A stretch of 64,000 nt of DNA from Chloroflexota bacterium (lineage in GTDB: Bacteria > Chloroflexota > Dehalococcoidia > UBA2979), in contig PBEG01000016.1 of NCBI GenBank assembly GCA_002718395.1, positions 1,003 through 65,002 of the forward strand. The letters are read 5' to 3'. Every line of letters starts with the position of its first letter. Position 1 is the first letter of the stretch. The notes beneath the pieces were generated by a model that worked only from the letters and a program-made list of their open reading frames with translations, did not search any database and was not told the origin of the DNA. The translations under genes were made by a program, and so were the position numbers. Of the stretch, positions 8,149 to 61,275 are shown one piece after another.

Positions 8149-8149
8149 T

Positions 8150-9091
8150 TTAATTAAGTAAAGTCTTCCAAGAGCTACCCCAATGCTGATCAGAATCAAT
8201 TTCGCTCTCTAGAATCAAATCCAATGACTCAATAGCTCTAAATAAATTGTTTCTATTGATAAATTTGTAATTTCTGAGACTTATCCAGTTGTCAGGATTC
8301 CTTGTGGCTTTCAAAAGCCATTTAAAATCAGACTCATCATCGTCATAATTGAAAGCCAAAATTACTTTTTTGCCATAATATTCTGCCTCTTGCAGAATAG
8401 TCCCAAATGAGGTGATGATTATAGACGCATTGGCAATTTCAGTTTGCATATCTTCTGAATTAAAAACAAAATCAATTTCAGGGTATTTACTCAATAAATA
8501 ATCTTTTTTGTGCTTATAACCTGGCCCAATAATAATTTTCAATCTATTCATATAGTTTGAGTCATACAACAAATTAAGAACAATACTCGAAATATCGTTT
8601 GGGTCACTACCTCCAAAGGTCAGAAGAATCTTATCGTTAAGCTCTTTTTTGTATAGCTTTGGCTCTTTCAGAACTGAATAATGTTTCCCCCATAAGATTG
8701 AATTTTCTGAAATATAACTTTTCTTTATCTTATCTTTATTAATAAAGAAGGATGGAACTATAACTTCTCCAGAATGAATAGCCCACCTGTCAACCCTATC
8801 AATTATTATGGTATTTTCTTTATTTTTAAAAAAACCATCAATCATATCCATGCAATCGTATTTAGAGTCTACAAAAGCGTAACTGAAATTAAAATCATTA
8901 TGAGTTTGTTGCTTTATTATTTTAAATTTTCTCTTCTTAAGAAATTGACTCTCTATATCGTTTGTGGCCAAAAATATGGATTTATTTTTGAGTCCCATAA
9001 TCTCTATAATGTTAGTGAGTCTATACAAATGACCAAATCCTATTTCAACTCCGCCAGACGCGAAACATAGAATTTTCTCACTATGACTCAC
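8150..9091 (-). CDS. pseG: UDP-2,4-diacetamido-2,4,6-trideoxy-beta-L-altropyranose hydrolase-like (PseG family GT-B)
   Basis: N-terminal GGVEIGFGHLYRL (the GxGHxxR signature of PseG), ~310 aa. Adjacent to a NeuB-family gene. Confidence 0.6.
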   Translation of the reverse strand: MSHSEKILCFASGGVEIGFGHLYRLTNIIEIMGLKNKSIFLATNDIESQFLKKRKFKIIKQQTHNDFNFSYAFVDSKYDCMDMIDGFFKNKENTIIIDRVDRWAIHSGEVIVPSFFINKDKIKKSYISENSILWGKHYSVLKEPKLYKKELNDKILLTFGGSDPNDISSIVLNLLYDSNYMNRLKIIIGPGYKHKKDYLLSKYPEIDFVFNSEDMQTEIANASIIITSFGTILQEAEYYGKKVILAFNYDDDESDFKWLLKATRNPDNWISLRNYKFINRNNLFRAIESLDLILESEIDSDQHWGSSWKTLLN

Positions 9092-16565: not shown

Positions 16566-17411
16566 TTACGAATTAAGTATTTGATTAAGGTATTTTCTAT
16601 CGCCCCAGAAACTCTTTGGTTCAAATTCTCTATAGGGATATGCTCCTAAATCAAGATCAATTATTTGGCCGCTCTCATTAATCCACTTCTTAACGAGATC
16701 AACAAGCCTTGTTGGCTCCCCCTTACAAATATTTATGAACCCTAGATTAGGTTTCTTGCATATGATCAATTTTGTTAACACCTCTGTTACTTCATCAACT
16801 GATAGATAATCTAATAATTGATCACCATTTGACATTCTAAATATTTTTTCTCTATTTTTAATAGCTTCATGTAATTGATTATATATTGTCGATGATATTT
16901 GACCTTTTCCATATACGTAAAATAATCTGGCCCAAGTTATATTGAAATTTGTCTTTTTCTGTAAAGCTAAAAGCTCCTGACTCAGTCTCTTCTTTGCAAT
17001 ACCATATTTAGTGATCGGTTGAGTTTCATTATTCTCATTAATCATCCCACTACACATTCCATACTCATAGCATGTTCCTAAAACAAAAACATTATTTACA
17101 CCGCGACCAATTATTTCTCTCAGAAAATTGAGGTGTTCTGGGAGATACTCTTTAACATGTCGGTCAGAATTTACGTTAGTTATATCATTCCATGCTAAGT
17201 GCACAATGGTATCGTAATCATTAGAAATCTCATCGGGCAAAGAATCTTTTCCGCCAATTTCATATTCCTTAATTAACAGTTGCTTATTATGACCTGTACT
17301 AATGCCTTTCTTTGATCTCACGAGAGATAGGACTTCTGTGTCTGATTTCAATAAGGATTCAGTCAAATATTTGCCTAAAAAACCAGTTCCACCTGTAAGA
17401 ATTACTCTCAC
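16566..17411 (-). CDS. NAD(P)-dependent sugar reductase/epimerase (short SDR, CDP-sugar 4-reductase-like). Start GTG at 17411 overlapping the upstream TGA (GTGA)
   Basis: TGGTGFLGK Rossmann motif immediately after the GTG. YGIAK YxxxK. ~280 aa, like the RfbS/Prt class. The ORF-track start at 17459 overlaps the upstream gene by 52 bp. Confidence 0.6.
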   Translation of the reverse strand: MRVILTGGTGFLGKYLTESLLKSDTEVLSLVRSKKGISTGHNKQLLIKEYEIGGKDSLPDEISNDYDTIVHLAWNDITNVNSDRHVKEYLPEHLNFLREIIGRGVNNVFVLGTCYEYGMCSGMINENNETQPITKYGIAKKRLSQELLALQKKTNFNITWARLFYVYGKGQISSTIYNQLHEAIKNREKIFRMSNGDQLLDYLSVDEVTEVLTKLIICKKPNLGFINICKGEPTRLVDLVKKWINESGQIIDLDLGAYPYREFEPKSFWGDRKYLNQILNS

Positions 17412-18652
17412 TCTAAAATTTCTAGTGTGGGAACAGCTATAACAAATCTTCCTCCCCACTCAGATATATAATTATTTTGATCAATTACCTCTTTTGCAAT
17501 ATTCCAAGGAAATATAAATACATAGTCTGGTTTATCTTTTTTTAAGTAATCAATATCTAGTATAGGTATATGAGAACCAGGCATATACTTACCTTGCTTA
17601 GATTCTGCCATATCACATATATATGGAATTAAATCTGGTTTGACGCCAGCATAATTAAGAAGTGTATTACCTTTTGCAGCAGCGCCATATCCTGCTACTT
17701 TTTTGTTTTCTTTCTTTGCTTGCAATAAGAAGCTCAGAAAAGAATTTTTGATTTCGTCTATTTCACTCTGGAATGTTTTATATGAGTCGAGGTTGTCAAG
17801 ACCCATCTCTTTTTCTTCATTAAGAATTTTATCAATGTATTCAGCATTATTTTGTATACTTGCGTCTTTCTTACAACCGTATATTCTCAAACTACCACAA
17901 TGTGTGGGAATCTTTTCAACATCATATATCCGCAAACCATGTCTTTCGAAGATATTGATAACTGTAGTTAGAGAATAATATGAAAAATGTTCATGATAGA
18001 GTGAATCAAATTGTTTTTCTCTTAACATATTAACTAAATGAGTAAACTCGATTGTTATTGTTCCATCATCTTTCAAAAGTAGAAAAAGTCCTTTGGTGAA
18101 ACTTTTTATATCAGGTACATGAGCATAAACATTATTTGCAATTATAAGGTCAGCTTTAGATTCCTTAGATACGTCTATTGCAGTTTCCTTCCCAAAAAAC
18201 CTTTCCTCAACCCTTATGCCTTTTGATCGAGCAATTTCAGCAGTAGATTTTGTTGGCTCTATGCCTAAGCAAGGGATTTCTCTTTTAAGGAAGTTCTTCA
18301 AAAGATATCCATCGTTAGATGCAATTTCAACAACAAAGCTATTACTATCAAGAGTTAATCTTTCTATGATTTTATTGGAGTAATCTTCGCAGTGATCGAG
18401 AAAACCTTTAGATGTTGAAGAAAGATAAGCATAGTCTTCATTAAAGATAGTCTCTGGAAGCACAAAATCTTGAGTCTGAACCAGAAAACAAGACTCACAA
18501 ACGTCTACTCTTAATGGAAAATAATGCTCCAACTGATTCAAATCATTTTCAGTCAGATATGCATTAGATGGCGGCGAGAAGCCTAAATCAGCAAAACTTA
18601 TGGATAGTGGATTATCACAGTTTCTGCATTTCATTATTTTGCTCTTAGTCAT
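17408..18652 (-). CDS. NDP-hexose C-methyltransferase (TylC3/NovU family; Zn-ribbon + Methyltransf_13/14-like)
   Basis: N-terminal CxxC...CxxC (CRNCDN...CESC). SAM fold in the middle. C-terminal C-MT domain. ~414 aa. Confidence 0.65.
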   Translation of the reverse strand: MTKSKIMKCRNCDNPLSISFADLGFSPPSNAYLTENDLNQLEHYFPLRVDVCESCFLVQTQDFVLPETIFNEDYAYLSSTSKGFLDHCEDYSNKIIERLTLDSNSFVVEIASNDGYLLKNFLKREIPCLGIEPTKSTAEIARSKGIRVEERFFGKETAIDVSKESKADLIIANNVYAHVPDIKSFTKGLFLLLKDDGTITIEFTHLVNMLREKQFDSLYHEHFSYYSLTTVINIFERHGLRIYDVEKIPTHCGSLRIYGCKKDASIQNNAEYIDKILNEEKEMGLDNLDSYKTFQSEIDEIKNSFLSFLLQAKKENKKVAGYGAAAKGNTLLNYAGVKPDLIPYICDMAESKQGKYMPGSHIPILDIDYLKKDKPDYVFIFPWNIAKEVIDQNNYISEWGGRFVIAVPTLEILE

Positions 18653-18676
18653 TCAAAAAAATTTGTGTAATGATTA

Positions 18677-19918
18677 TTATGGCACGTAGTGGGGCTCTGG
18701 CAGTGGGTGTAAAAACTTACCGCCTTTTTCTAAATATAATGCTTGTTGCTCAATAATTTCATCGGCAAAATTCCACGCACATAATAATATGACATCAGGT
18801 AAGTCCTCATGAATATGTTCGGTTGGAAAAATAGGAATATGAGTACCAGGAGTTATTTTGCCGTGCTTTAATTCACTCTTATCAACAACATAATCTACAA
18901 CTGAGTTATCAATTTGACAAAATTGCAAAAGACATTGTCCCTTTCCTGAAGCGCCATAGACTGCAATCTTTTTCCCTTGTTGTTTAAGCTCAATGATTTT
19001 CTTGCTTATTGAATCTTTGTGAGCAATAGCTCTATTTGCAAATTCGTTCCATGAAGAAATTTCATATAATCCCAATTCCCTTTCTTCATCAATCAATTGC
19101 TGAACACGATTTGATATTTTCCTTGGTCCGTCTTTATGCTGAAGATAAACTCTGATTGATCCTCCATGAATCCAAATCCTCTCCACATCAAATACTTCCA
19201 TTCCAAATCTTGAATATAATTTACAAAAGCTATCAAGTGAATGATATCCAATATGTTCATGAAAGACCTGGTCATACTGCAGTTCTTCAAACATGGTTTG
19301 TAGATGTGGCACCTCTATGACTGCAAAGCCATCTTGAGAAAGTGTAATGCTTATACCTTCTGCAAATCCATGAAGATCTGCAACATGAGCCATTACATTT
19401 CTTCCGATAACAATATCAAAAGTCCCATGATTATTTAGTATTGATTCTGCGCTCTCTAAATTAAAGAAACCAGCAATAGAATTTATCCCTCGATTATTTG
19501 CTATTTCTACAATATTTTCAGCTGGATCAATTCCGAGTACTTCTGAGCCGTTATCCTTGAAAATAGATAATACGGTACCATCATTACTTGCTACCTCTAG
19601 TACTTTTGGAGCATGTTGATTTTCATTTTCATGATGTGTTTTACGAATGCTGTCATGAAACTCTTTTGCATACTTAATGACAGCATCCGAAAATCCTGTT
19701 GCATAAATATAATCCGAAAATAAATCTCCTGGATCTAGGATTTCATCAATTTGAAGATGATTACATTCTCTGCAAAAACATAGATTCATTGGAAATTTCT
19801 TCTCATTTTCAATTTCATCAATGGAATCAAGAAAACTGTCAGAAAGTGCCATTTCTTTATAATCTAAGATAACCTCAAGAGCGTCAGCACCACAAATTCT
19901 GCAATTATTTATTTTCAT
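18677..19918 (-). CDS. NDP-hexose C-methyltransferase paralog (TylC3/NovU family)
   Basis: Same architecture as the adjacent gene (CRICGAD...CREC, VLEVASNDG, C-terminal domain). ~30% identity to its neighbour by eye. Confidence 0.65.
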   Translation of the reverse strand: MKINNCRICGADALEVILDYKEMALSDSFLDSIDEIENEKKFPMNLCFCRECNHLQIDEILDPGDLFSDYIYATGFSDAVIKYAKEFHDSIRKTHHENENQHAPKVLEVASNDGTVLSIFKDNGSEVLGIDPAENIVEIANNRGINSIAGFFNLESAESILNNHGTFDIVIGRNVMAHVADLHGFAEGISITLSQDGFAVIEVPHLQTMFEELQYDQVFHEHIGYHSLDSFCKLYSRFGMEVFDVERIWIHGGSIRVYLQHKDGPRKISNRVQQLIDEERELGLYEISSWNEFANRAIAHKDSISKKIIELKQQGKKIAVYGASGKGQCLLQFCQIDNSVVDYVVDKSELKHGKITPGTHIPIFPTEHIHEDLPDVILLCAWNFADEIIEQQALYLEKGGKFLHPLPEPHYVP

Positions 19919-45295: not shown

Positions 45296-47107
45296 TCAAT
45301 TAATAATTGTTGCCATTTCTAAAAATTCTTTATTGTTTTCTAGTAAGTATTCATAATTGCCACTATCAACTACATGTCCATTATCAATAAGATAAAGTTT
45401 GTCACATTTTTGAACGGTGCTTAGTCTATGGGCAACTATTATTATTGTCTTTGTCTTCGCAAAATTATTTATAGCATCCATAACTAGTGCTTCAGTAACA
45501 TTATCAAGGGAGCTAGTTGCCTCATCAAAAATCAAAATCTCACTCTCTCTGTATAGGGCTCTTGCTATACCAATTCTTTGTCTTTGCCCACCAGATAGCT
45601 GCATTCCATTTTGACCAACCTGAGTATCTAACCCATCTGGCAAAGTTGAAATAAACTCATCCAAATTCGCCAACATAACTGAATTTTGAATTTTAGATTT
45701 ATTTATCTCATTCATTGATTTCCCAAAGGCTATATTCTCTTTGATTGAAGCATCAGATAAAAATATAGATTGGGGGACAAAACCAATCTTTTCCTGCATC
45801 AGGCTAATATTATTTTTATGAATTACAAATTCTCCATCAATTACAATTTCACCACTATCTGGCGTTATAAGGCCTAATATAATGTCGATTATTGTTGATT
45901 TTCCTGAGCCTGATGAACCTACTATTCCAATTGTTTTATTAACTGGAATCTCAATATTGAGATTATTAAGTGCTGAATTTAATTTACCTGGATATGAAAA
46001 ACTTATATCCCTTAACTCGATTGTTTGTCCAATTTTAAATTGATCAAAATTATATTCATTTTCTTTTTCAATTAGTAACTTTTCATTTTGGCTATTCTTA
46101 AAATCTTCTCTGATACTATCAAATGCTGATAAATTACCTTGAATCGTTGAAATGCTAGCATAGACTTGTTGAAAAGCAGGTAGCAGCTTAACTCCTGCTA
46201 ATGCATAAACAGATAAAACGGGTACAACTCCACTAAGAGATCCGTCATGAGACCTGATTAGGTAAAGTATAAAAATTATAATTGAGCTAAATGCAATCAG
46301 TTCCATAAAGTATCTAGGAATCTGAGACAGCGCAACAATTGAACCTTGCCCTCTCGCAAACACTCTTCCAGATCTTTTGAATCTTTTCATATATTTCTCT
46401 TGAATACGAAGAAATAATACATCTCTAATTCCACCTAAGCCCTCAGAAAGCTCTTTGTATCTTTCCGTATGAGAATTTGAAACATCCTTACTATTTTTAG
46501 AGAGCCTGGATCTAATCATTTGATATATAGAAAGATATGCAATGCCAAAGATTAATAGTGCAATTATAGCAACATATGGATCATAAATTACCATGCTCGT
46601 TATTATGAATATTGCTGTAAATATCCTTGCATTAAGCATGATAAGAGGATTAATAATCCCAGACTTTACTCTATTGGTTTCGGCAGTTATTTGTTTAATT
46701 AGATTAGCGCTGTTTTCTTTAGAGTGAAAAAGCCAGTTTTTATTTAGATAATAATTAAATAGTGTATTTTGAATGCTCACTCCCAGTTCTTGGCCAAATA
46801 GTGATAGAACCCATATTGTATATGTAGAAATCATTGTTCCAATAGCCAAGATACTTATAACTATTCCCCCTAGGAATAATACAAACTCACTTGTATCCCC
46901 TGATCCAGACCATTCATATACGTTAGCTAAAATATTTTCACCATATAAAGTTCCAGGATCAGTAACCACCAACATAAATGGTCCTATTGATGCTACCGTT
47001 ATCAACTCAAAACCAGCAGTTATGATTGCGAGAAGTTGTATCAGAAAGAATTTCTTCCTCTGGATAGATCCTAGAAGCAAAATGAGTTCAGTAACTTTTT
47101 TTATCAT
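45296..47107 (-). CDS. ABC exporter, fused permease-ATPase (MsbA/PglK/Wzk-like candidate lipid-linked-oligosaccharide flippase)
   Basis: N-terminal 6-TM domain, Walker A GIVGSSGSGKST, signature LSGGQRQRIGIARAL, Walker B ILIFDEATS. 603 aa. Confidence 0.8.
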   Translation of the reverse strand: MIKKVTELILLLGSIQRKKFFLIQLLAIITAGFELITVASIGPFMLVVTDPGTLYGENILANVYEWSGSGDTSEFVLFLGGIVISILAIGTMISTYTIWVLSLFGQELGVSIQNTLFNYYLNKNWLFHSKENSANLIKQITAETNRVKSGIINPLIMLNARIFTAIFIITSMVIYDPYVAIIALLIFGIAYLSIYQMIRSRLSKNSKDVSNSHTERYKELSEGLGGIRDVLFLRIQEKYMKRFKRSGRVFARGQGSIVALSQIPRYFMELIAFSSIIIFILYLIRSHDGSLSGVVPVLSVYALAGVKLLPAFQQVYASISTIQGNLSAFDSIREDFKNSQNEKLLIEKENEYNFDQFKIGQTIELRDISFSYPGKLNSALNNLNIEIPVNKTIGIVGSSGSGKSTIIDIILGLITPDSGEIVIDGEFVIHKNNISLMQEKIGFVPQSIFLSDASIKENIAFGKSMNEINKSKIQNSVMLANLDEFISTLPDGLDTQVGQNGMQLSGGQRQRIGIARALYRESEILIFDEATSSLDNVTEALVMDAINNFAKTKTIIIVAHRLSTVQKCDKLYLIDNGHVVDSGNYEYLLENNKEFLEMATIIN

Positions 47108-51822: not shown

Positions 51823-51830
51823 GCTACCGC
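51823..51830 (-). promoter_or_regulatory. ops-like element GCGGTAGC (core of the RfaH recruitment site GGCGGTAGnnTG) in the operon leader, 13 nt upstream of the marR-like start
   Basis: Minus-strand (non-template) reading ctaGCGGTAGCtattg. Lies between the rfaH ortholog and the first gene of the ~48 kb operon. An 8-mer may also occur by chance (~2 expected in the window). Confidence 0.4.
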
Positions 51831-51949
51831 TAGATTTTAGTAGCTAAAACCTTATTATAGTTTAAAATTTTTCTATCTCTGTTCATTTGATGAACAGCTA
51901 CATTATAATAAGATTATTTGTTCATGCAATGAACATAAGTTCAATTAGA

Positions 51950-52498
51950 TTATTTTTTATCTATTAACTTAAATGTTTCACTGCTAATGCTATCTTCAAT
52001 ATGATTAAATGGGATCTCTGTTTTTATATCCTGATTCAATATACTCATTAGTACTAAAACTCTATTTTTACTAGTTTTAGTTAGAAATCTAGCATTTAGA
52101 TTCTTAAATATACTTTTATTGATTTCTACCTTTTCCCCCTTTTTATGTTCTTTCTTGATGTCCTTCAAATGACAAATATCATTATGATCTAAATATGAAC
52201 AAATCTTTTGAATTGCCTCCCTAGGAACAAAAGAAAGTTTATTGCCAAATGTGATTAGATTAGAGACTCCTACAGTGGAGTTTATTTTGTTCCAATCTTC
52301 TTTATATAGATGAACTGAAATAAAAATATATCTAGGAAACATTGGCTTGACTTGAGAAGGATGTGAGTCATTAATGCTACTCTTTGAAATCATTGGAAGA
52401 AGTGTCATAAAACCTTGATTTGTAAGGTTCTTTTGAGCCTCAACTTCACTTCCTGGCTTAGTATATGCGAGTAACCATTTTTTATTCTTATGATCCAA
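51950..52498 (-). CDS. rfaH: NusG-family operon-specific antiterminator, RfaH ortholog
   Basis: NGN domain KKWLLAYTKPGSE..LLPMIS..PMFPRYIFISV and KOW-like KKGEKVEINKSIFKNLNARF align well with E. coli RfaH. Confidence 0.75.
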   Translation of the reverse strand: MDHKNKKWLLAYTKPGSEVEAQKNLTNQGFMTLLPMISKSSINDSHPSQVKPMFPRYIFISVHLYKEDWNKINSTVGVSNLITFGNKLSFVPREAIQKICSYLDHNDICHLKDIKKEHKKGEKVEINKSIFKNLNARFLTKTSKNRVLVLMSILNQDIKTEIPFNHIEDSISSETFKLIDKK

Positions 52499-52553: not shown

Positions 52554-55415
52554 TTAAAAACTATTTACTGCTGCTGCTGCAAGTGCCATTTGATATATTA
52601 TTTGTGTGACTTCTGTAGTAGCTTGAATACTTGAGAACGGTTGTACCTGTAATGGTATAACAATTGTATCTCCAGGAGCTAGCTGTGACCCCCGTCCTCT
52701 AAAAAACCCTGATGACAACTGTGATGGTGAAACTACACTTCCGTCTGATTTAATCAGATAGAGATTGGCTTCATCAGCAAATGATGTTAATCCTCCACTC
52801 AAGCTAATATAGTCATTAATTCCTAGATCTTTTTTGTATAAGTGTGAATTTGACACAAAAACTTCACCGATGACTGAAATACTTTGAATCTTTTTAGGGA
52901 TATGTAGCTTATCTCCATCTTCAAGAATTATATCATCTATACCTCCTGATAATATTCCATCAAGATCAATAACTAGTCGGCCAAGAACTTCGGTATCATT
53001 GGTGTCTGATGATATTAGAGATGTAAGTTGACTTATAGAATTACTATCAAGAGAGTCTTTGCCTAGACCGCCAGCCTGACTCGATAGCAGTATTTTTCTT
53101 TTCAACTCATCTTGAGCACTTTTTAATCTGTCTTTTTCTGCTTCTTGAATAGCCTCTCTTTGATAGTAAGCTGCATCGATTGATCCAAATTCAGTTACTC
53201 CTCCTGCTCTTCTTATGAGCTCGCCCAATGTTTGATTCTCTGTTATTGGATAAGTACCTGGAAAGAAGACCTCTCCGCTAATTTCAACTGACTGAAAATC
53301 TGTGGCCAACTGTTTTAGTATTACAGTATCCATCTCATTTAACTTAATCTCACTTGCCTCTTTTATAGAAGCAAAGTTATTTTTACTGATAAATTTCTTA
53401 TCTTGTTGATTTATAGTATTAAGCTCAATTTCAGCCTGATAAGTTCCATTCTTGGGTCCTCCAGCCGCTTTGATAGCATCTGACAAGATCATTTGGTTTG
53501 TGAGTGGATATTGACCAGGGAAATGGACATTTCCATAAACTGAAACGAGACTGAGTTTTTCTTTAGTATCATTCCTCTCTATCAAATCTATAATTGGATC
53601 AAGTAACTCTTGCCTACATAAAGATGTAATTGTTTTTGATAACGCCTCGCTTTGATAGTTCTCATTCTGAAGCTCTATCCTTTCTCTCTCCAAAGTTTGC
53701 TGAAGAATTAAGAAATCTTCTGGCGTTGAAAGTTTTTCTAGATCTTCTATAGGAATTGATTTCTTTGGTCTGAATCCAGATTCTTCAATTATCTTAATAG
53801 CCAAATCTTCTGGTAAAGTGCAGTAATCATAAACACTATACTCATAGTATCTCATAATGTCTGATTCTGACATTTCCAAATCTGGTTGGGTTTGTATTTC
53901 ACCAATGCTCATTGTATTTTTCTTATCAAGAGCTAGCTTTTCCTCCATAAGTGATTTTCTAAGATAGGTCAAAGATGTCCATTCGTCCTCAAGAACCATC
54001 ATATTGGAATCCTTATCAAGAACATATCGATCTCGTATCAGCCTAGTTGTGATTTGATCAGGAGTAATAATGGAAGGAAATAGGATAATTTCATCATGAT
54101 CCTTTAGAGTCAAATTTTTACTAGATTCAGGATTGCTAAATAGATCCTCTAAATCTATTTGATGAAACTCAAATAGTTGTGATTTTTTATTTTTTCTTTT
54201 TACTAGGACATAATTCAAATCTGTCATCTCCAGTAAGTCATCTGAATCATTAAAGAGATCCAATAATTTCATTCCACTTTGCCAAGGATAGAATCCAGGT
54301 TCTTGAGCATGTCCAGAAATTAGGACGGCATTTTTAAGATTATTGGGAACAGAAAATACTGAAACAACATCGCCATTCATCATCTCAAAATTTTGACTAT
54401 CTTTTTTATTCATATCGATTGAAAGAAGGTCAAATGAATTATTGATAGTATTTATCCTAGTAATATTTGTTGAAGAGAGGTTTGCTTTTGGTTTTAGATT
54501 TCCAGAATATTTTAGAAGGTGCTCTAAGTTCTCATCATTTTTGAGTTCATATATTCCAGGCTTATTTACCTCTCCTCTTATCGCAACTGTTTTTCCAATT
54601 GGCTCGATGAAAACTACATCGCCTTGCATTAATCTAGAATCATTACTAGTATCTCCATTTAGTAGAAGGTCGTAAAAATCAAATGTTGTAACGACATTAC
54701 CGTTTCTTTTAAGCTTGATATTTCTTAGCGAACCTGCCTTGCCTATACCCCCGCTCTTCATTATTGCATTTGTAAGTGAAGATAAAGCACTTATGCTGAA
54801 CATGCCTGGATTACTGGCTGATCCCAAAACAAAAATATCAATTGCTCTCAGAGTACCCATTGTAACGCTTACTTGTGCACCGATTAGTTGATTAGAAATT
54901 ATATTCTTCAGTAGCTCTTTCAAATCTCCAAAAGTAATGCCAGCAACAAACACTGGTCCAATTTCTGGAAGAAAGATATCACCATCTCTAGTGACTTTAA
55001 GTTCATACTTACTGTTCTTGCTCCCAAAAAGAATTATCTTAATTGTGTCATTTGGTCCAATCATATAATCGGGTGGAACAGGAACATCCTTTAAAGGAGC
55101 AAATGTAGACAGATTGTTTTGAAAGTAACTATATCCGAAATAATCTAGAGGCTCATTTGGTAATCTTACATTAGGGGGGTTAACAAAATTCTTGCCTCCA
55201 GTATATCCATAATCACTATCTGAAAAGTCAATTGTCTCTTGCCTTTTTTCATCGATTTCATCCTCATCATCTGACTCAAAATCGGAAACTTGATCAGCGT
55301 CACTGTTACCTAATCCGCTAGCTAGGTTAGTTAGTATTGATGCCTCCATTTGAGCATAAGAATTCTGTCCTATAATCAAAACTAATAGCAAAATAATTTT
55401 GTAGTTAAGTTTCAT
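52554..55415 (-). CDS. wza: outer-membrane polysaccharide export protein (Wza/OPX family, giant multi-SLBB form, 953 aa)
   Basis: Signal peptide. Poly_export-like region (PPDYMIGPNDTIKIILFG) followed by several soluble-ligand-binding beta-grasp-like repeats. Comparable in size to Vibrio WbfF/OtnA. Confidence 0.75.
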   Translation of the reverse strand: MKLNYKIILLLVLIIGQNSYAQMEASILTNLASGLGNSDADQVSDFESDDEDEIDEKRQETIDFSDSDYGYTGGKNFVNPPNVRLPNEPLDYFGYSYFQNNLSTFAPLKDVPVPPDYMIGPNDTIKIILFGSKNSKYELKVTRDGDIFLPEIGPVFVAGITFGDLKELLKNIISNQLIGAQVSVTMGTLRAIDIFVLGSASNPGMFSISALSSLTNAIMKSGGIGKAGSLRNIKLKRNGNVVTTFDFYDLLLNGDTSNDSRLMQGDVVFIEPIGKTVAIRGEVNKPGIYELKNDENLEHLLKYSGNLKPKANLSSTNITRINTINNSFDLLSIDMNKKDSQNFEMMNGDVVSVFSVPNNLKNAVLISGHAQEPGFYPWQSGMKLLDLFNDSDDLLEMTDLNYVLVKRKNKKSQLFEFHQIDLEDLFSNPESSKNLTLKDHDEIILFPSIITPDQITTRLIRDRYVLDKDSNMMVLEDEWTSLTYLRKSLMEEKLALDKKNTMSIGEIQTQPDLEMSESDIMRYYEYSVYDYCTLPEDLAIKIIEESGFRPKKSIPIEDLEKLSTPEDFLILQQTLERERIELQNENYQSEALSKTITSLCRQELLDPIIDLIERNDTKEKLSLVSVYGNVHFPGQYPLTNQMILSDAIKAAGGPKNGTYQAEIELNTINQQDKKFISKNNFASIKEASEIKLNEMDTVILKQLATDFQSVEISGEVFFPGTYPITENQTLGELIRRAGGVTEFGSIDAAYYQREAIQEAEKDRLKSAQDELKRKILLSSQAGGLGKDSLDSNSISQLTSLISSDTNDTEVLGRLVIDLDGILSGGIDDIILEDGDKLHIPKKIQSISVIGEVFVSNSHLYKKDLGINDYISLSGGLTSFADEANLYLIKSDGSVVSPSQLSSGFFRGRGSQLAPGDTIVIPLQVQPFSSIQATTEVTQIIYQMALAAAAVNSF

Positions 55416-55553: not shown

Positions 55554-57077
55554 TCAAGAGAAGTATTTATTTTTATATTCTTTAAACGTAATTATATCTT
55601 TTTCGAGCATGCATTGTTTCTTTATTGAGCTTTCTGTTTCAATATTTAGTTTTTTCCAATTGGAATTATTCTTTGAATTTAACTCAAGAAATTTTAGTTT
55701 ATTCTTATGAGAAATAGACTCTCCAAGACGAATAAATGATCTTTTTTCTATGAGTGATTCTAAGATCATAGCTGAGGGAGTTAAAGAAGGGTCATTGATT
55801 CTTGCTCTCATAAGCTCAATATTTTCAGAGTGTCCAATTTCTTTGTGGTTATCCAAAAAATTAGCTATTGGAAGCATTTCATCAAGAATTTCATTTGCCC
55901 AATCTGTTAAAGAAATATTCTTATCATTTCTTACTAATTTCAAATTTGGCTTCCTGCCCATCTTTGCAACTTTGATATCATTTTTAAATATCTGTTTTTC
56001 TTCTATTTTATTGATGGGATCACTTTCCTTTACGAACGCATAGAGCATGAAGATCTCTAGAAAAATTATAGTCTCTTCACTAATCCCAATTGGAGAATAT
56101 GGATCCAGATCCAGTGACCTTAATTCAATGAAATCAACACCGCCATTCAATAACTTCTTTGCAAAACGAACATCTGATTTATCTATACTCTTAGCTCTAG
56201 CAGCGGCATAGTACTCATCTTCTATTTGTAATTGGTTAGCATTAATTTGAGAGAGCGTATCCCCTGTTTCATCAAAAATCTTTGAAAATGAATCGCTTTT
56301 TTGATTAGTTGCTTTTAACAGATCAGTGGTATATGAATTCAATGAATTTGTTGAAATATTAATTTTCGCCCTCGATAAATTTTGATACCCATACTCACTC
56401 ATCCTGATTGAAGTTCCGTATGGGGAAAATAAAGTGTTTTTATCTAACTTGACAAAATCATCATTTAAACCTGATAAAAAATCTTTAGTTATTGAAGGAG
56501 AACAACCAAATAAATAGAGAATTAGCCAATTCATTCTTAGAACATTTCTAAGAATAGAGAAATAATTCTCAGATCTTAATTCAAGAGATTCTCTTTCATG
56601 ATTTTTAAATATAGAGCTTGTCCAAATTTTTCTTGGTAATGAATAATTAAAGTGGACACCGGAAATAGTTTGCATTAATCGGCCATATCTATGAGATAAA
56701 CCTTTTCGATACACATGCTTAAAGAGTCCTTTGCTTGAAGTTCCAAATTTTGCAATAGGTATGCCGCCCTTACCTATATAAAATGGCATACTAAAAGGCC
56801 AGAGCATTTCGTCATCAACACTAGAGTAAAAAAAATGATGAATATCTAAAAGAAAATTAAGTGCTTTTCTTTTGTCAGAAAAAGGTGGTGTAATGAATTC
56901 TAGTTGAGCCTCAGAGAAATCAGTTGTTATATAACTATTACATAATGAGGAGCCTAATGATTTTGGATGGGGTTCTTGTGAAATCTTTGAATTCAAATAT
57001 CTTAAGCTTTCTTTTTCAATTCCTACTTCTGAGCACTTTATATATGGCTCTATCTCAGATAATAGTTCCTGTTTCAT
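55554..57077 (-). CDS. gshA: glutamate--cysteine ligase (E. coli type)
   Basis: LGSSLCNSYITTDFSEAQLEFITP, YGRLMQTISGVHFNYSLP, VDFIELRSLDLDPYSPIGI colinear with E. coli GshA. 507 aa. Confidence 0.9.
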   Translation of the reverse strand: MKQELLSEIEPYIKCSEVGIEKESLRYLNSKISQEPHPKSLGSSLCNSYITTDFSEAQLEFITPPFSDKRKALNFLLDIHHFFYSSVDDEMLWPFSMPFYIGKGGIPIAKFGTSSKGLFKHVYRKGLSHRYGRLMQTISGVHFNYSLPRKIWTSSIFKNHERESLELRSENYFSILRNVLRMNWLILYLFGCSPSITKDFLSGLNDDFVKLDKNTLFSPYGTSIRMSEYGYQNLSRAKINISTNSLNSYTTDLLKATNQKSDSFSKIFDETGDTLSQINANQLQIEDEYYAAARAKSIDKSDVRFAKKLLNGGVDFIELRSLDLDPYSPIGISEETIIFLEIFMLYAFVKESDPINKIEEKQIFKNDIKVAKMGRKPNLKLVRNDKNISLTDWANEILDEMLPIANFLDNHKEIGHSENIELMRARINDPSLTPSAMILESLIEKRSFIRLGESISHKNKLKFLELNSKNNSNWKKLNIETESSIKKQCMLEKDIITFKEYKNKYFS

Positions 57078-57113: not shown

Positions 57114-59309
57114 TTAAATACTCTCTCTTGGTGATGTACTAAATCCATTGAAAATCTTTTTGATGGACCATGATTTTTGGCTAATAATATCTAATTCATC
57201 TGAAGCATCGGTTACTAGGTTATATAAGCCTCCCCCTGACTCAACTTTTGTGCCAGCATCTTTTGTGAGAGGGCTCCAAGAATATCCTGTTTTTTGTCTA
57301 GTAGAAGAACTTATAAAAAATAAGTCCATTGGCATCTCAAAATAGATCCATTTATTAAAACTACCTTCTCCGACACACTGAGAATCACAATCAGTTAATG
57401 CTACTATTGCTCCAACCCTTGCGCCTGTATCAAATCTTCTGGATATATCTATATGTGCGCCAACATCTTTACCTAGAAATTTACCCATACTTATTTTTAG
57501 GCGTGTATCGTAAAAAGGAATGTCACGGTAATAAGACAGAAATCCCGTTACAGTCTCATAATCCTGAAAACCAAACCTCTGATCAAAGTCTCTTTGCTTT
57601 ACCCAGAAAGCCTCTAAACCTAATGCCCATCTTCTATTATCTGGTAAATATAAAACCTCTCCTCCATATCCTCCATACATCCATTCGAGATAACCAGCAG
57701 AGAGCTTAGCTTTTATGTTTGTGCTTAATCCAAATACATAATCAATAGCCATTCTTCTTAATCCTGACTCACCCTCAGTTAAATATAATCTTCTGTTTTG
57801 CCTGACATGATAAAGCTCTCCATCCGGAACATGATATGTATAGTCTCTATAGTTATTTGCGATATCAATTCCAATATCAGTCGTAAATGTCAATCCTTTC
57901 TTAATTGCATATTCAGTGTGAATTAGGGCCTCAAGCTGCCAGAAGTAAAACTTTTCTTGGTGTTGAAGTGTACCTAGAGCATGAGGCTTTATTTCCCAGG
58001 AAAAATTTGGGTATAAAAAATCATTTTTAATAACAGTTACGTCATTCTCGAGTGGTCTATAGATATCATAAGAAAACATTTCTTCTTCTAGAGGCTGATC
58101 TCTAACAATTCTTTTAATATCTCCTTTTCTTATGGTTGACCTTATTGTTTCAATACCCTGATCAATATTTATAATTGTTATATGTTCAATATTTTTTGGA
58201 GCATTACTTGCCAAAACTCTACTAGCCAAGTCAAGAGCTTGGGATGTCTTGCTGAATCTTCCCTGGCTTATCTCGGCTGCTAACTCATCCCCATTGAAAA
58301 AAATATTATGTGTTACAAAACCAACATTTGCCATCTCTCGAAATATCCTGTTAGTAAGAAATTTCTTCCAGTTATCATTTGTGGTGCTGTAGTTATCAAT
58401 ATTCGTATTTCTTAGTATTTCTGGCCCTAAAACTATGCTTGGGCGTCCTTTAAAATTAAGATTCGAATGTACAGATGCATTCAAGTAAATGGTGTTACCT
58501 CTAACATATCCTAGTGATAAATCTAATTTATCTCTATCACCTAGATTCATTCTGTAATTGAATGAATAATTAAATCTAGAGTCTAGTTGAAATTTATCCC
58601 CCGTTTCATCAAACCTTTTTTCAAGACCGATTATTCTTGAATAATTTGAAGAATCATATTCTAGCTTAAATGTGAAATTATCAATTGGGCTCAGATACTC
58701 TAAACCACCAAAAAATGCTGCGTCGCCTGAGAATAATCTGCCAAAGCTAACAAGACCGCCTAGAGTTCCTTTCTCGCCGCCTCTAATTTTTTTTGATTCA
58801 ATGAAATGCCCCAAAGGATTATTGAATGTATTTTTACCTGCAAGTCTCCCCCAACCCAAACCAAAGCTCAAATCAAAATTATTGATTTTCTTAGACCCTA
58901 CGATATATTCGCTTGCATATGCTCCTGTACCACCAAAATCAGTTATCCCCATTGCTATCTGGGGGAAATTATCTCTTTCTTTAAGTAACAAAAAACGAAA
59001 ATCAATACCTTTATCTTTCCATGTTTGCTGACTACCTTTCATGTAAGGCCTAGAGGTACCCTCGGTATATTTGAGCGTTGCTTCCATCCAGGGGAATATC
59101 TGGACTGATGAGTAGAGACGGTTATAAACTTCTTCTGAAGAGATTCCAAAAACAAACTCTCCATCATCTAAGAATCTGGCTGAGGGAGTTTCAATTAAAC
59201 CTATGCCACCATATGTCGATTGGAAATAAGGTGAACTATAATCATCTGCATACACCGTAATTGAAACGATGCAGCTAAAAAATATTAATAATGAAATTTT
59301 CTTAAGCAT
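57114..59309 (-). CDS. YjbH/GfcD-family outer-membrane beta-barrel protein (exopolysaccharide/group-4-capsule assembly)
   Basis: Signal peptide. YGGIGLIETPSARF..YSSVQIFPWMEATLKYTE..GITDFGGTGAYASEYIVGSK..FDLSFGLGWGRL and C-terminal PMDLFF..SWSPLTKDAG align with E. coli YjbH. Confidence 0.8.
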   Translation of the reverse strand: MLKKISLLIFFSCIVSITVYADDYSSPYFQSTYGGIGLIETPSARFLDDGEFVFGISSEEVYNRLYSSVQIFPWMEATLKYTEGTSRPYMKGSQQTWKDKGIDFRFLLLKERDNFPQIAMGITDFGGTGAYASEYIVGSKKINNFDLSFGLGWGRLAGKNTFNNPLGHFIESKKIRGGEKGTLGGLVSFGRLFSGDAAFFGGLEYLSPIDNFTFKLEYDSSNYSRIIGLEKRFDETGDKFQLDSRFNYSFNYRMNLGDRDKLDLSLGYVRGNTIYLNASVHSNLNFKGRPSIVLGPEILRNTNIDNYSTTNDNWKKFLTNRIFREMANVGFVTHNIFFNGDELAAEISQGRFSKTSQALDLASRVLASNAPKNIEHITIINIDQGIETIRSTIRKGDIKRIVRDQPLEEEMFSYDIYRPLENDVTVIKNDFLYPNFSWEIKPHALGTLQHQEKFYFWQLEALIHTEYAIKKGLTFTTDIGIDIANNYRDYTYHVPDGELYHVRQNRRLYLTEGESGLRRMAIDYVFGLSTNIKAKLSAGYLEWMYGGYGGEVLYLPDNRRWALGLEAFWVKQRDFDQRFGFQDYETVTGFLSYYRDIPFYDTRLKISMGKFLGKDVGAHIDISRRFDTGARVGAIVALTDCDSQCVGEGSFNKWIYFEMPMDLFFISSSTRQKTGYSWSPLTKDAGTKVESGGGLYNLVTDASDELDIISQKSWSIKKIFNGFSTSPRESI

Positions 59310-59460
59310 ATCTAATTTTAGTCAACTATAAATAATCTCACACAGTCTATAAGTTATATTAACGTTTTTAGAAGTGTCTAGATGATATTTAGTAACTAAT
59401 ACTTACCCAAATGTCTCAACTAAGGAGAAATCTTGGGCAAGTACCTAAGTAAGATATTGT

Positions 59461-60045
59461 CTAGTTACTTGACGAAGTAGTTGTACTACTAGTTGTGGTA
59501 GTAGTCGTAGTTACACCCGTTGTTGTTGTTGCTGCTGCTGATGTAGTTGTAGTAACTGGATCAGTTGTAGTAGCTGTTGTAGTTGTTGTAACTGGATCAG
59601 TTGTAGTAGCTGTTGTACTACTAGTAGTTGTTGTAGTTGCTGGCGTCGGTGTCGGCGTCGGCGTCGGTGTAGGTGTCGGCGTCGGTGTAGGTGTAGGTGT
59701 AGGTGTCGGCGTCGGTGTAGGTGTAGGTGTAGGTGTAGGTGTTACAGGATCATTGCCAGATGGGGTAGTGTATTCCGAAGAACCGCCACTAAAAAGTCCT
59801 AAAATTGCTCCAGTAATCGCAACCCAGACTCCAGCTCCAGCCACACCAGCTGCACCAGCTGATGATGAGCCGCCAGCTGCTTCTGCTGCTTCTGCTGCTT
59901 CTGCTGCTTCTGCTGCTTCTGCATTAGGATCTTCAAATTCCCCAGCTCCTTCTTCACCCTCTGATGCAATAGACTTAAAGCTTGCGCCAGATAGGACAAG
60001 AGTTAACATTGAGAAGTATGTACCGAGTTTTTTCAATAATTTCAT
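59461..60045 (-). CDS. YjbE/GfcA-like secreted Thr/Pro/Ala-rich low-complexity protein
   Basis: Signal peptide, (AEA)n block, Gly/Ala hydrophobic segment, (TP)17 linker, poly-Thr tail. Immediately upstream of the yjbH-like gene, as gfcA/yjbE is in E. coli. Confidence 0.6.
   Translation of the reverse strand: MKLLKKLGTYFSMLTLVLSGASFKSIASEGEEGAGEFEDPNAEAAEAAEAAEAAEAAGGSSSAGAAGVAGAGVWVAITGAILGLFSGGSSEYTTPSGNDPVTPTPTPTPTPTPTPTPTPTPTPTPTPTPTPTPTPATTTTTSSTTATTTDPVTTTTTATTTDPVTTTTSAAATTTTGVTTTTTTTSSTTTSSSN
59552..59617. repeat. 36-bp direct duplication (gtaactggatcagttgtagtagctgttgta ...) encoding a repeated TATTTDPVTTTT unit
   Basis: Two near-identical copies at 59552..59581 and 59588..59617. Confidence 0.8.
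59642..59743. repeat. hexanucleotide tandem repeat (GGTGTC/GGCGTC/GGTGTA)x~17, encoding (Thr-Pro)n on the minus strand
   Basis: Directly visible: ggcgtcggtgtcggcgtcggcgtcggtgtaggtgtcggcgtcggtgtaggtgtaggtgtagg... Confidence 0.9.
59877..59923. repeat. 9-bp tandem repeat (GCTGCTTCT)x5 encoding (Ala-Glu-Ala)n on the minus strand
   Basis: gctgcttctgctgcttctgctgcttctgctgcttctgctgcttctgca. Confidence 0.9.
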
Positions 60046-60254
60046 CTGTGATGATCCTTTAAATTAGTTTGTATTTTAATCTACCCACCCCAGGTTTTCA
60101 TATACCTAAGGTGTAAGTTTTAATCAATTAGCATTGTTTGTAAACAACATTTTCACTTTTTTGCATAAAGTTACATGTGTTAGTTGAAGAGGATTATAGT
60201 TGAAACTAAAAGTATTAAATACCCTTTTATTGAGTTATTTTTTTAGCCATAAAA

Positions 60255-60857
60255 CTAAGCTTTATCATCAAATGGGCGAATTGACATTCTTTTCACTATA
60301 TATTCTTGAAGATTATTTATGTCTTTTTCAGTCAAAGCACCATCAAAAACTCCAGTGAATAATTGATCAAAATCCTGAACTACACTTGTAAAGTATATTG
60401 TTAAAGGTTTCATCATCTCTTCAGAAATGCGATAGAGCGTTCTTCTTGAATCGGCAGGATCTTTTTCTCTTATAAAAATCTCACTATCAACGCCAATAGA
60501 GAGTACTTTTCTGAAATTTGCGAATGTAGTTGCTGGAAAAATATCACAAATAGAATCATATAAATCATCTCTACTAACCCCATTATCACCTCTGAATTGA
60601 AACAAAATAACTGAACAAATAATTTGAACTTGGAGATAGCCAGATCTGATGTAATTGGATAGTTTTCTAGGCTGAAGATCTCTATTTGATAATCCTAAAG
60701 CTCTTATAGTGGCGGCATATGCAAGAACCTCTATGCCTTGATTTGTATCCTTGAAATCAATTGTAGACTGATTGACAGCTTCTGATAGACTGCCCTTTTT
60801 CTTGTTGATCTCCCATTTCTCAATACTTTTATTTATCTGGCTGACTTTATTGTTCAT
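60255..60857 (-). CDS. hypothetical protein, possible C-terminal winged-helix (MarR/PadR-like wing REKDPADSRRTLYRIS)
   Basis: No signal peptide or TM. Only a weak wHTH-like pattern in the C-terminal half. Confidence 0.25.
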   Translation of the reverse strand: MNNKVSQINKSIEKWEINKKKGSLSEAVNQSTIDFKDTNQGIEVLAYAATIRALGLSNRDLQPRKLSNYIRSGYLQVQIICSVILFQFRGDNGVSRDDLYDSICDIFPATTFANFRKVLSIGVDSEIFIREKDPADSRRTLYRISEEMMKPLTIYFTSVVQDFDQLFTGVFDGALTEKDINNLQEYIVKRMSIRPFDDKA

Positions 60858-60927: not shown

Positions 60928-61275
60928 ATGGATATGTTTAAGAAAAAAATATTTTTAATTGTTTCATTGATAACTTTCAGCTCAATGACTTTCGCTGAAT
61001 GCAATTACCCAAAGAAAAAGTTTGATATTCCCTCAGGGAAAAAAGCAACTGAAGCCGAAATGGTTGAAACCATGGGTAAAGTAAAACAATTTCAGGCTGA
61101 TCTAGGGGTTTACAGAATATGCTTGGATAATGAGTTAGCCAAAGTCTCTCCTGAGCTTGAGTCATATGAGGAAATTGAGAGAATGAATGCTCAAAAATAC
61201 AATGCCTCAGTCGAAGACGAACAAAAAATGGCTGAAGAATGGGGCGAAGCTGTCAGGGCCTTTAAATCAAAATAA
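60928..61275 (+). CDS. small secreted/periplasmic hypothetical protein (115 aa, signal peptide, 2 Cys)
   Basis: N-terminal MDMFKKKIFLIVSLITFSSMTFA signal-like segment. Helical, charged mature part. Divergent from the 60255..60857 gene. Confidence 0.4.
   Translation: MDMFKKKIFLIVSLITFSSMTFAECNYPKKKFDIPSGKKATEAEMVETMGKVKQFQADLGVYRICLDNELAKVSPELESYEEIERMNAQKYNASVEDEQKMAEEWGEAVRAFKSK

Follow-up and report, generated by a model that had tools for sequence, protein, structure and literature searches.

The YjbH/GfcD proteins form the largest multi-barrel family of the outer membrane, and the roles of GfcA and of GfcD/YjbH are still debated. GfcD and YjbH are double barrels of 12 and 13 strands with a lateral gate (Solan et al. 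2021; Fruet et al. 2024; PMC8346858, PMC11494523). The gate of the C-terminal barrel, which has been modelled for GfcD, suits the release of lipid-anchored polymers (PMC11494523), and the family's N-terminal barrel is similar to FapF, an amyloid exporter (PMC9603273). GfcD is bound by a tight heterodimer of GfcB with GfcC, and GfcA may be a modified cargo directed to GfcD (Larson et al. 2021, PMC8592465). Overlaps of 1-4 bp between gfcB and gfcC and between gfcC and gfcD have been taken as coupled function, a natural GfcC-GfcD fusion (OtnG) exists, and operons of the yjbEFGH type need no adjacent wza-wzb-wzc genes (PMC8592465). Homologs of GfcD/YjbH adjoin outer-membrane polysaccharide export (OPX) genes of Classes 1, 2A and 2B, so that the combination of a Class-2 OPX with a neighbouring GfcD/YjbH barrel is already catalogued, and it has been proposed that Class-2 OPX proteins contact the partner barrel via an integrated GfcC module (Saïdi et al. 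2022, PMC9603273). Direct contacts between OPX and porin and between OPX and polysaccharide co-polymerase (PCP) have been described in a Class-3 system (Mellouk et al. 2026, PMC12819527). Here, a locus related to these systems is described in a 64-kb stretch of DNA from an uncultured marine bacterium; this whole stretch is called the window. With a rough probability of 0.55, the locus is a lineage-specific gfcABCD/yjbEFGH module without GfcB, in which a giant OPX protein would dock on YjbH through a fused GfcC module, the GfcA-type (A-like) protein would be a retained partner and gshA a passenger.

An earlier note on this DNA had listed an A-like gene, a yjbH gene, gshA and an OPX gene. Coordinates, gaps and identities of all four were confirmed, and all lie on the minus strand:

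59461..60045, minus strand: small secreted protein of GfcA/YjbE type, 194 amino acids (open reading frame and architecture)
57114..59309, minus strand: YjbH/GfcD-family outer-membrane protein, 731 amino acids (PF06082)
55554..57077, minus strand: gshA, glutamate-cysteine ligase, 507 amino acids (TIGR01434, PF04262)
52554..55415, minus strand: giant OPX protein of Wza type, 953 amino acids (Pfam domains, AlphaFold2 (AF2) model, Foldseek)
52557..53306, minus strand: GfcC/YjbG-like module and terminal helix of the OPX protein, last 250 codons (hhalign, hmmsearch, Foldseek)

The gaps measure 151 bp from the A-like gene to yjbH, 36 bp from yjbH to gshA and 138 bp from gshA to the OPX gene. YjbH of the window matched PF06082 at an E-value of 2.6e-162 over profile positions 2-657 of 658, and phmmer aligned it with both Escherichia coli paralogs at about 30% identity (9e-94 with YjbH, 6e-95 with GfcD). 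By these matches it is a full-length member of the YjbH/GfcD family, with a signal peptide of the signal peptidase I (SPase-I) type and, by analogy with the family, a predicted double beta-barrel fold. Every one of the 275 homologs found was annotated with PF06082, and two cysteines, C641 and C645, were invariant in the YjbH proteins of the clade described below.

From N- to C-terminus, the OPX protein comprises an SPase-I signal peptide (MKLNYKIILLLVLIIGQNSYA/Q, without a lipobox cysteine), an acidic disordered N-terminus, a Poly_export domain, SLBB domains, a helical insert, more SLBB domains and a GfcC-like module. Pfam recognised Poly_export (PF02563) at E 5e-16 as well as five SLBB_2 and four SLBB stretches. 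Wza (PDB 2J58) was matched at E 5e-14 by sequence and at 7.5e-19 by Foldseek with the AF2 model, which had a pLDDT of 70. The GfcC-like module occupies residues ~710-925 (~220 residues) and is followed by a terminal helix of 24 residues (929-952), which was predicted at low confidence. When the C-termini of OPX proteins from 13 loci were compared by hhalign with an alignment of 11 GfcC/YjbG proteins, a probability of 99.5% (E 8.9e-23) was obtained over GfcC residues 26-224 of 248, and residues invariant in GfcC mapped to conserved OPX positions in the alignments read by eye. In hmmsearch, the GfcC profile reached an independent E-value of 1.6e-10 at OPX residues 751-926; ordinary Wza proteins gave 0.2-0.3, and the internal SLBB domains of the same protein gave 18-260. 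With values so much poorer for the internal domains, the C-terminal similarity is not generic SLBB similarity. Foldseek matched the OPX model to GfcC (PDB 3P42) at E 4e-7 over 230 columns. By three independent methods, the C-terminus of the OPX protein is thus identified as a GfcC/YjbG module.

A stand-alone GfcC/YjbG gene was found in the window neither by phmmer nor by the profile, GfcC homology being confined to the OPX C-terminus. The previous claim that no C/G homolog was recognisable was therefore not upheld, as the module makes up the C-terminal ~220 residues of the OPX protein. It escapes the eye because the Pfam model PF06251 stays just below its threshold (17.4-17.7 bits on residues 860-925; gathering score 20), and for the same reason a Pfam-only scheme would mislabel this and similar OPX proteins as pore-less Class 3. 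No Wza_C domain (PF18412) was reported in the last 175 residues at E<=10, in a search where the HMMER filters drop most matches weaker than E ~0.1. With neither a Wza_C match nor a cysteine for lipidation, the protein falls outside Class 1, the type of E. coli Wza. It is best assigned to Class 2 in the sense of Saïdi et al. 2022, who likewise used fold recognition as the criterion for GfcC, and on domain criteria provisionally to Class 2A; a terminal helix that spans the membrane would make it 2B.

In the 64 kb of the window, every stop-to-stop open reading frame (ORF) of at least 30 amino acids was searched for missing components, and relatives were searched over up to +/-10 kb. Phmmer with E. 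coli GfcB and YjbF gave nothing at E<=1 in any of these ORFs of the window, and a GfcB profile of 13 sequences, run with --max, gave nothing at E<=1 in the window or in loci L001-L016, L045 and L046. As a positive control, the same profile found GfcB in 23 of 24 informative loci outside the clade, and the recovered forms included divergent and fused proteins from outside the seed alignment. In these 23 loci GfcB lay within 10 kb of YjbH, mostly adjoining the barrel or its fusion partner, and was often overlapping or fused. The earlier observation that a B/F homolog is lacking was thus upheld for the window, by phmmer and by profile, and for 10 clade loci, and GfcB absence is local to the loci so covered. 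The description of the set as A-like and D-like only was correct for the local lack of B, but not for C, which is kept as a fused OPX module. Judged by gene content, the clade is distinctive only in that GfcB is absent from the neighbourhood. Two conserved ORFs upstream of the A-like gene, ORF200 and ORF115, were considered as cryptic GfcB substitutes and rejected, as neither matches the GfcB profile; ORF200 also has no signal peptide and a MarR-like model.

The A-like protein of the window begins with a signal peptide, after which comes the conserved motif SEGEEGxxFxDPNA. The repeat (EAA)5 and a hydrophobic segment of glycine-zipper type, rich in Gly and Ala (GAGVWVAITGAILGLFSGGS), stand next, and they are followed by the repeat (TP)~16 and by a Thr-rich tail with SSSN as its last residues. 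Seven clade orthologs had a common layout of signal peptide, SEGEEGxxFDDPNA, acidic low-complexity stretch, hydrophobic segment, (TP)~20 and tail; their hydrophobic segment is near-invariant (GAGAGVWVAITGA(I/V)LGLFSGGS) and their Thr/Ser/Gly tail mostly terminates in N. Tandem repeats inside the gene have units of 6, 9 and 36 bp, present in 15.8, 5.2 and 2.2 copies respectively. Differences among the seven orthologs numbered 415/294/931 at codon positions 1/2/3 of the minus-strand frame, and because of this excess at third positions the A-like ORF is a real, translated gene. The same codon-position statistics favour the minus-strand frame over the plus-strand ORF at 59495-60067, which is therefore regarded as a shadow ORF. 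A gene has also been called on the opposite strand at the syntenic position of locus L046 (9214-9789), and is probably the same shadow ORF.

The Pfam YjbE model (PF11106) did not match the A-like protein at E<=10, either whole or without its tail. E. coli GfcA likewise failed this model; as the model is silent even for GfcA, architecture alone speaks for membership in the family. A similar layout was seen upstream of the YjbH module in 11 distant loci, which include Halopseudomonas, Thiomicrorhabdus, Pseudidiomarina, Salinisphaera, Burkholderiales and Sphingomonadales: a signal peptide, Gly/Ala/Ser/Thr low complexity, a Gly/Ala/Val hydrophobic segment, an acidic patch and a Thr/Gly/Ser tail at the end. 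By position and recurring architecture, A-like appears to be a fair label, with a tail of ~100 residues in the window versus roughly 10-25 elsewhere. Across contigs 98.9-99.9% identical, the length of the protein was 194, 197 or 187 amino acids (window; L001 4209-4802; L006 403-966), the differences consisting of a GAA-type insertion and five fewer TP units, and several assemblies break within the repeat. This variation is either a strain-level polymorphism or an assembly artefact. The 151-bp region between the A-like gene and yjbH contains a 14-bp hairpin in the window; the sequence could not be aligned across the clade, and no support was obtained for the hairpin as a conserved RNA element.

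Ten related loci, with YjbH 50-58% identical to that of the window (50-65% in the clade overall), share the order A-like gene, yjbH, gshA wherever the contig extends that far. The reduced module thus recurs among relatives and is not the accident of a single contig. Where the upstream sequence is long enough, mdh and ORF115 stand on the opposite strand, and most of these loci also include ORF200, which is syntenic in L001, L009, L010, L011, L045 and L046. ORF115 is conserved between mdh and ORF200 throughout the clade and shows no similarity to GfcB. Downstream, an OPX gene with a GfcC module follows gshA in nine of the ten loci, at distances of 0.09 to 5.4 kb. The opposite-strand genes at 13719-17989 of L046 encode a phosphoribosyltransferase and PNP_UDP_1, IF-2B/MtnA-like, Zn-ADH and DeoC-like proteins. 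Two complete copies of the A-like/yjbH/gshA/OPX set, each with its own gshA, lie on different contigs of one metagenome-assembled genome (MAG), JAQWQE01 (cluster2_bin.245; loci L009 and L015), and a mixed-strain bin is the more likely explanation than a true duplication.

The gshA product scored 426.3 bits on TIGR01434 (cutoff 393.3; residues 12-503) and matched PF04262 at E 2.3e-127, and with a score above cutoff it is classed as a genuine full-length GshA equivalog. Gaps between yjbH and gshA in the clade were -4, -1, 5, 23, 36 (window), 41, ~72 or more, and ~136 bp. The stop of yjbH overlaps the start of gshA in L045 and L046, by 4 bases in one and 1 base in the other, and these overlaps argue for a shared transcript of the two genes in at least part of the clade. 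No gshA was found near YjbH in 28 loci outside the clade. An own promoter and terminator of gshA, which would separate two independent units, had been considered beforehand; no terminator was detected in the 36-bp gap, in L045 and L046 the genes overlap, and such a separation thus found no support. In the scan of the window, 34 promoter-like sites were counted versus 46 in shuffled sequence, and 6 terminator-like sites versus 5.4; no site lay in the yjbH-gshA or the gshA-OPX gap. Since these counts are at or below chance, transcription units are not defined by them. The description of gshA as wedged between barrel and Wza is accurate for the window, but yjbH and gshA are better seen as a conserved pair, specific to the clade, that borders a variable glycan island, the OPX gene being the first conserved gene of that island.

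The further features around the module are:

60255..60857, minus strand: ORF200, clade-restricted conserved cytoplasmic protein directly upstream of the A-like gene
60928-61275, plus strand: ORF115, small secreted protein with a signal peptide and two cysteines, no family match
59495-60067, plus strand: shadow ORF of 190 amino acids, Val/Gly-rich, antisense to the A-like gene
51950..52498, minus strand: RfaH-like NusG paralog, 182 amino acids (PF02357, E 2.7e-17), downstream of the OPX gene
51823..51831, minus strand: ops-like element AGCGGTAGC, at a distance of 13 nt before the start codon of MarR_EPS

Beyond the RfaH-like paralog follow a MarR_EPS regulator, a Wzz-type PCP and rml genes. Minus-strand ORFs continue to ~3.9 kb, the ten sampled including sugar-modifying enzymes and an ABC exporter, and this series of genes looks like a glycan cluster of ~50 kb; the gene for Rho is at 1195-2577. 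A tandem pair of sugar C-methyltransferase genes (Methyltransf_13/14), a fused ABC exporter of MsbA/PglK type and a GH57-family protein were noted in this island (17408-19918, 45296-47107 and 6172-8199, all minus strand). Such a content hints at a methylated glycan of an unusual kind and possibly at ABC-type flipping. In the whole window, no match was obtained in a tRNA scan or with Rfam at gathering thresholds.

On TIGR01955 the RfaH-like paralog scored 117.6 bits, below the cutoff of 144.5. The ops-like element matches seven of the first eight bases of ops (GGCGGTAGnnTG), and GCGGTAGC is conserved at the equivalent position in L009. It was the sole match in an ops search of the region, which found none before the A-like, yjbH or OPX genes; given this position, the A-yjbH unit is not visibly under the antitermination control of the glycan operon. 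In two Pseudidiomarina loci (L022, L031) and two Burkholderiales-type loci (L029, L036), GCGGTAGC stands just upstream of the gfcB...yjbH genes instead. Two perfect palindromes of the form TGTTCA-N5-TGAACA were found at 51880-51896 and 51919-51935, between the RfaH-like and MarR_EPS genes and shortly before the ops-like element, where shuffled sequence predicts 0.05 sites in the whole window. L009 (9346-9362) and L045 (17555-17571) have palindromes of the same type in the corresponding place, and these sites resemble an operator with which the glycan operon would begin. By their placement, the ops-like site and the palindromes together indicate where the long glycan operon starts, and this start is distinct from the A-like/yjbH/gshA unit.

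ORF200 had no sequence match in Pfam, NCBIfam, PHROG or PDB. It has 655 marine homologs, the best 120 of which share ~80-92% identity, and is far more conserved than the neighbouring YjbH (55-65%). Its AF2 model (pLDDT 57) contains a helix-helix-hairpin at residues 96-144, and the top 50 PDB matches in Foldseek were all of the MarR family, at weak E-values of at least 2.6e-3. The model suggests that ORF200 may be a MarR-like winged-helix regulator, perhaps of the A-like/yjbH unit.

The exact YjbH sequence of the window was present on 12 contigs from Tara Oceans and other marine metagenomes. The source MAG is labelled Chloroflexi in NCBI, and related contigs carry the labels Gammaproteobacteria, Flavobacteriales, Alphaproteobacteria and Methanobacteriota (records of the source and its relatives: MBI52011, L012 PALS01000043, L013 and P0029); one single-cell genome among the relatives is labelled 'uncultured gamma proteobacterium'. 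The lineage is probably an uncultured marine gammaproteobacterium of low GC content, the other phylum labels being binning errors. From the low GC content and the small-size-fraction sources in Tara, an assignment to SAR86 can be guessed. Misbinned MAGs of this kind would account for the puzzling YjbH sequences labelled 'Euryarchaeota' in the work of Solan et al. 2021.

In the GfcB-less module proposed here, polymer from the ~50-kb glycan cluster would be passed by the Wzz-like PCP protein to the periplasmic 953-residue OPX protein, which has no detectable Wza_C pore domain and would end in the GfcC module and a short amphipathic helix. The GfcC module would dock on the periplasmic face of YjbH, as free GfcC does on GfcD in E. 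coli, and the way through the outer membrane would be provided or completed by YjbH, whose lateral gate might release a polymer anchored to lipid or protein. The GfcA-type protein, kept in every module variant examined, would be an obligate partner of the barrel, either as anchor or acceptor or as cargo. gshA would be a housekeeping gene locked into the yjbH transcription unit in a compact genome. The locus fits well with published ideas, in that an OPX protein without a recognisable pore domain and with a GfcD-binding module is encoded near a barrel of the GfcD family.

Several observations weigh against this proposal. GfcD of E. coli is bound weakly by GfcC alone and better by the heterodimer of GfcB and GfcC (PMC8592465), so that a system without GfcB may dock differently. 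The terminal helix of the OPX protein could itself span the outer membrane, as proposed for KpsD, and the barrel would then be unnecessary for exit. Two loci show a loose link between yjbH and the OPX gene: the interval from gshA to the OPX gene in L046 holds an epimerase gene and five housekeeping genes of the opposite strand, so that the OPX gene is not locked to the yjbH-gshA pair, and in L011 no OPX gene was detected in the 3.5 kb examined after gshA. The ops-like site is placed downstream of both the OPX and the RfaH-like genes. Finally, GfcB could be encoded elsewhere in the clade genomes.

The strongest rival explanation, unlikely though to be taken seriously, holds that the A-like protein and YjbH form a self-contained unit independent of the OPX protein and the island. 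YjbH would then export or display the Thr/Pro-rich protein or handle another polymer, much as yjbEFGH of E. coli functions with no wza in its vicinity, and adjacency to the island would be mere conserved core-genome synteny. Such a unit would agree with the fixed order of mdh, ORF115, ORF200, A-like gene, yjbH and gshA beside an OPX gene at varying distance, with the housekeeping genes in the L046 interval, and with a separate transcription start downstream of the OPX gene, as marked by the ops-like site and the operator-like palindromes. It would also agree with the independence of yjbEFGH from wza-wzb-wzc and the possible role of GfcA as GfcD cargo (PMC8592465), and with the FapF-like N-terminal barrel (PMC9603273). 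Against it, every OPX protein of the clade bears a GfcC module, and GfcC is the known binding partner of GfcD. The OPX gene also stays within 5.4 kb of gshA (7 kb of yjbH) in nine of ten clade loci, and in three alphaproteobacterial loci (L032, L033, L037) a similar giant OPX gene with a GfcC module lies immediately upstream of YjbH.

In a more speculative and rather improbable reading, the YjbH double barrel has its true substrate or its anchor in the Thr/Pro-rich A protein, which, coupled to glycan, forms a surface coat. The FapF-like N-terminal barrel would serve to export or thread the A protein, and the island glycan, delivered by OPX-GfcC to the C-terminal barrel, would decorate or couple to it. 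If so, the coat would be mucin- or proteoglycan-like, and through its repeat length (194/197/187 amino acids) a very abundant ocean lineage may vary its surface against grazers and phages. The A, D and C components would then be the irreducible gfc/yjb core and GfcB an accessory of the enterobacterial style.

It is still less probable that the set is not reduced at all and that a GfcB/YjbF lipoprotein encoded elsewhere in the genome lets the system work as in E. coli. The span of the searches, given above, leaves room for such a gene, and split polysaccharide clusters, with parts at different places in the genome, are known from myxobacteria (PMC9603273). The close linkage of GfcB to YjbH in 23 of the 24 informative loci outside the clade speaks against relocation, as do the overlaps among gfcB, gfcC and gfcD with the coupled function that they imply (PMC8592465), and uniform relocation across a clade with 50-65% identity is less parsimonious than a loss accompanying the GfcC-OPX fusion. 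A functional tie of gshA to the module, for example through thiol or redox chemistry for four conserved Cys-containing YjbH motifs or for the glycan, is very improbable: its adjacency to yjbH in 10 of 10 clade loci despite ~45% protein divergence, the two stop/start overlaps and the invariant C641 and C645 would suit it, but gshA is a standard cytoplasmic equivalog found near none of the 28 YjbH loci outside the clade, unrelated genes are often merged into shared transcription units in compact genomes, and no link between glutathione synthesis and gfc/yjb systems is known to us, none being mentioned in the papers cited here, with no literature search aimed at it.

If the locus is a GfcB-less module as proposed, its conservation is informative: the clade keeps A, D and a fused C and drops B across ~45% protein divergence, which indicates the indispensable parts. 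It would lend comparative support to two published ideas, namely that Class-2 OPX proteins engage a partner barrel by means of their integrated GfcC and that barrel and A protein belong together. Several public MAGs with the locus are labelled as phyla that should have no outer-membrane barrel. The organism is uncultured, so that these findings are not directly testable at the bench. Much of the arrangement was anticipated by published surveys, and it is less minimal than first seemed: as a minimal variant of the YjbH-type secretion module, in the words of the earlier note, the set is indeed reduced and conserved in 10 loci, but it retains GfcC.

Compared with gfcABCD(E-etp-etk) and yjbEFGH of E. 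coli, the locus shares a small Thr-rich protein with a signal peptide and a Gly/Ala/Val hydrophobic segment, encoded directly upstream of a full-length YjbH/GfcD barrel, and the associated OPX and PCP genes. It differs in that the gene for the GfcB/YjbF lipoprotein is locally lacking and GfcC is a C-terminal module of the OPX protein rather than a free periplasmic protein. At about double the length, the A protein includes a (TP)n repeat and ~100 residues of Thr-rich tail; a chain of overlapping B, C and D genes is missing, the barrel gene is followed by gshA, and the OPX protein is not a lipoprotein and has no detectable Wza_C.

With KpsD-like Class-2 OPX proteins, the OPX protein of the window shares Poly_export, multiple SLBB domains, a C-terminal GfcC-like module, a terminal helix and an SPase-I signal peptide, and with some of them also a YjbH-family barrel encoded nearby. 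At 953 amino acids it is longer than the reported medians of 605 (2A) and 824 (2B).

The Myxococcus WzaX/S/B-WzpX/S/B systems, which have Class-3 OPX proteins, share the concept of a pore-less periplasmic OPX protein and an integral beta-barrel for the last export step. The barrel there is the 18-stranded, PgaA-like Wzp, whereas that of the window is the two-barrel YjbH; the OPX proteins there are lipidated and short, whereas that of the window is long, non-lipidated and bears GfcC.

Other gfc/yjb loci range from canonical to fused. The canonical order GfcB-GfcC-YjbH was found in Halopseudomonas, Thiomicrorhabdus, Enterovibrio, Spongiibacteraceae and Salinisphaera. GfcC-YjbH fusions of ~990-1000 amino acids occur in Burkholderiales-type MAGs (L026, L029, L036), in agreement with the OtnG fusion of Larson et al., GfcB-GfcC fusions of ~481-488 amino acids in Pseudidiomarina (L022 8358-9800, L031 8322-9785), and YjbH-GfcB fusions of ~960-1010 amino acids in some alphaproteobacterial MAGs (L040 9875-12910, L042 9890-12775). 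Other alphaproteobacterial MAGs encode a divergently transcribed GfcB beside a giant GfcC-bearing OPX protein, followed by YjbH. As read from these loci, the gfc/yjb family is a mosaic of fusions, and the fusion of components across its variants points to a single complex. The theme of accessory components merged with a larger partner is shared by the locus described here with the Burkholderia OtnG type and the other fusions. Whereas those variants fuse GfcC to the barrel, GfcB to GfcC or GfcB to the barrel and keep GfcB, the locus in the window fuses GfcC to the OPX protein and dispenses with a neighbouring GfcB.

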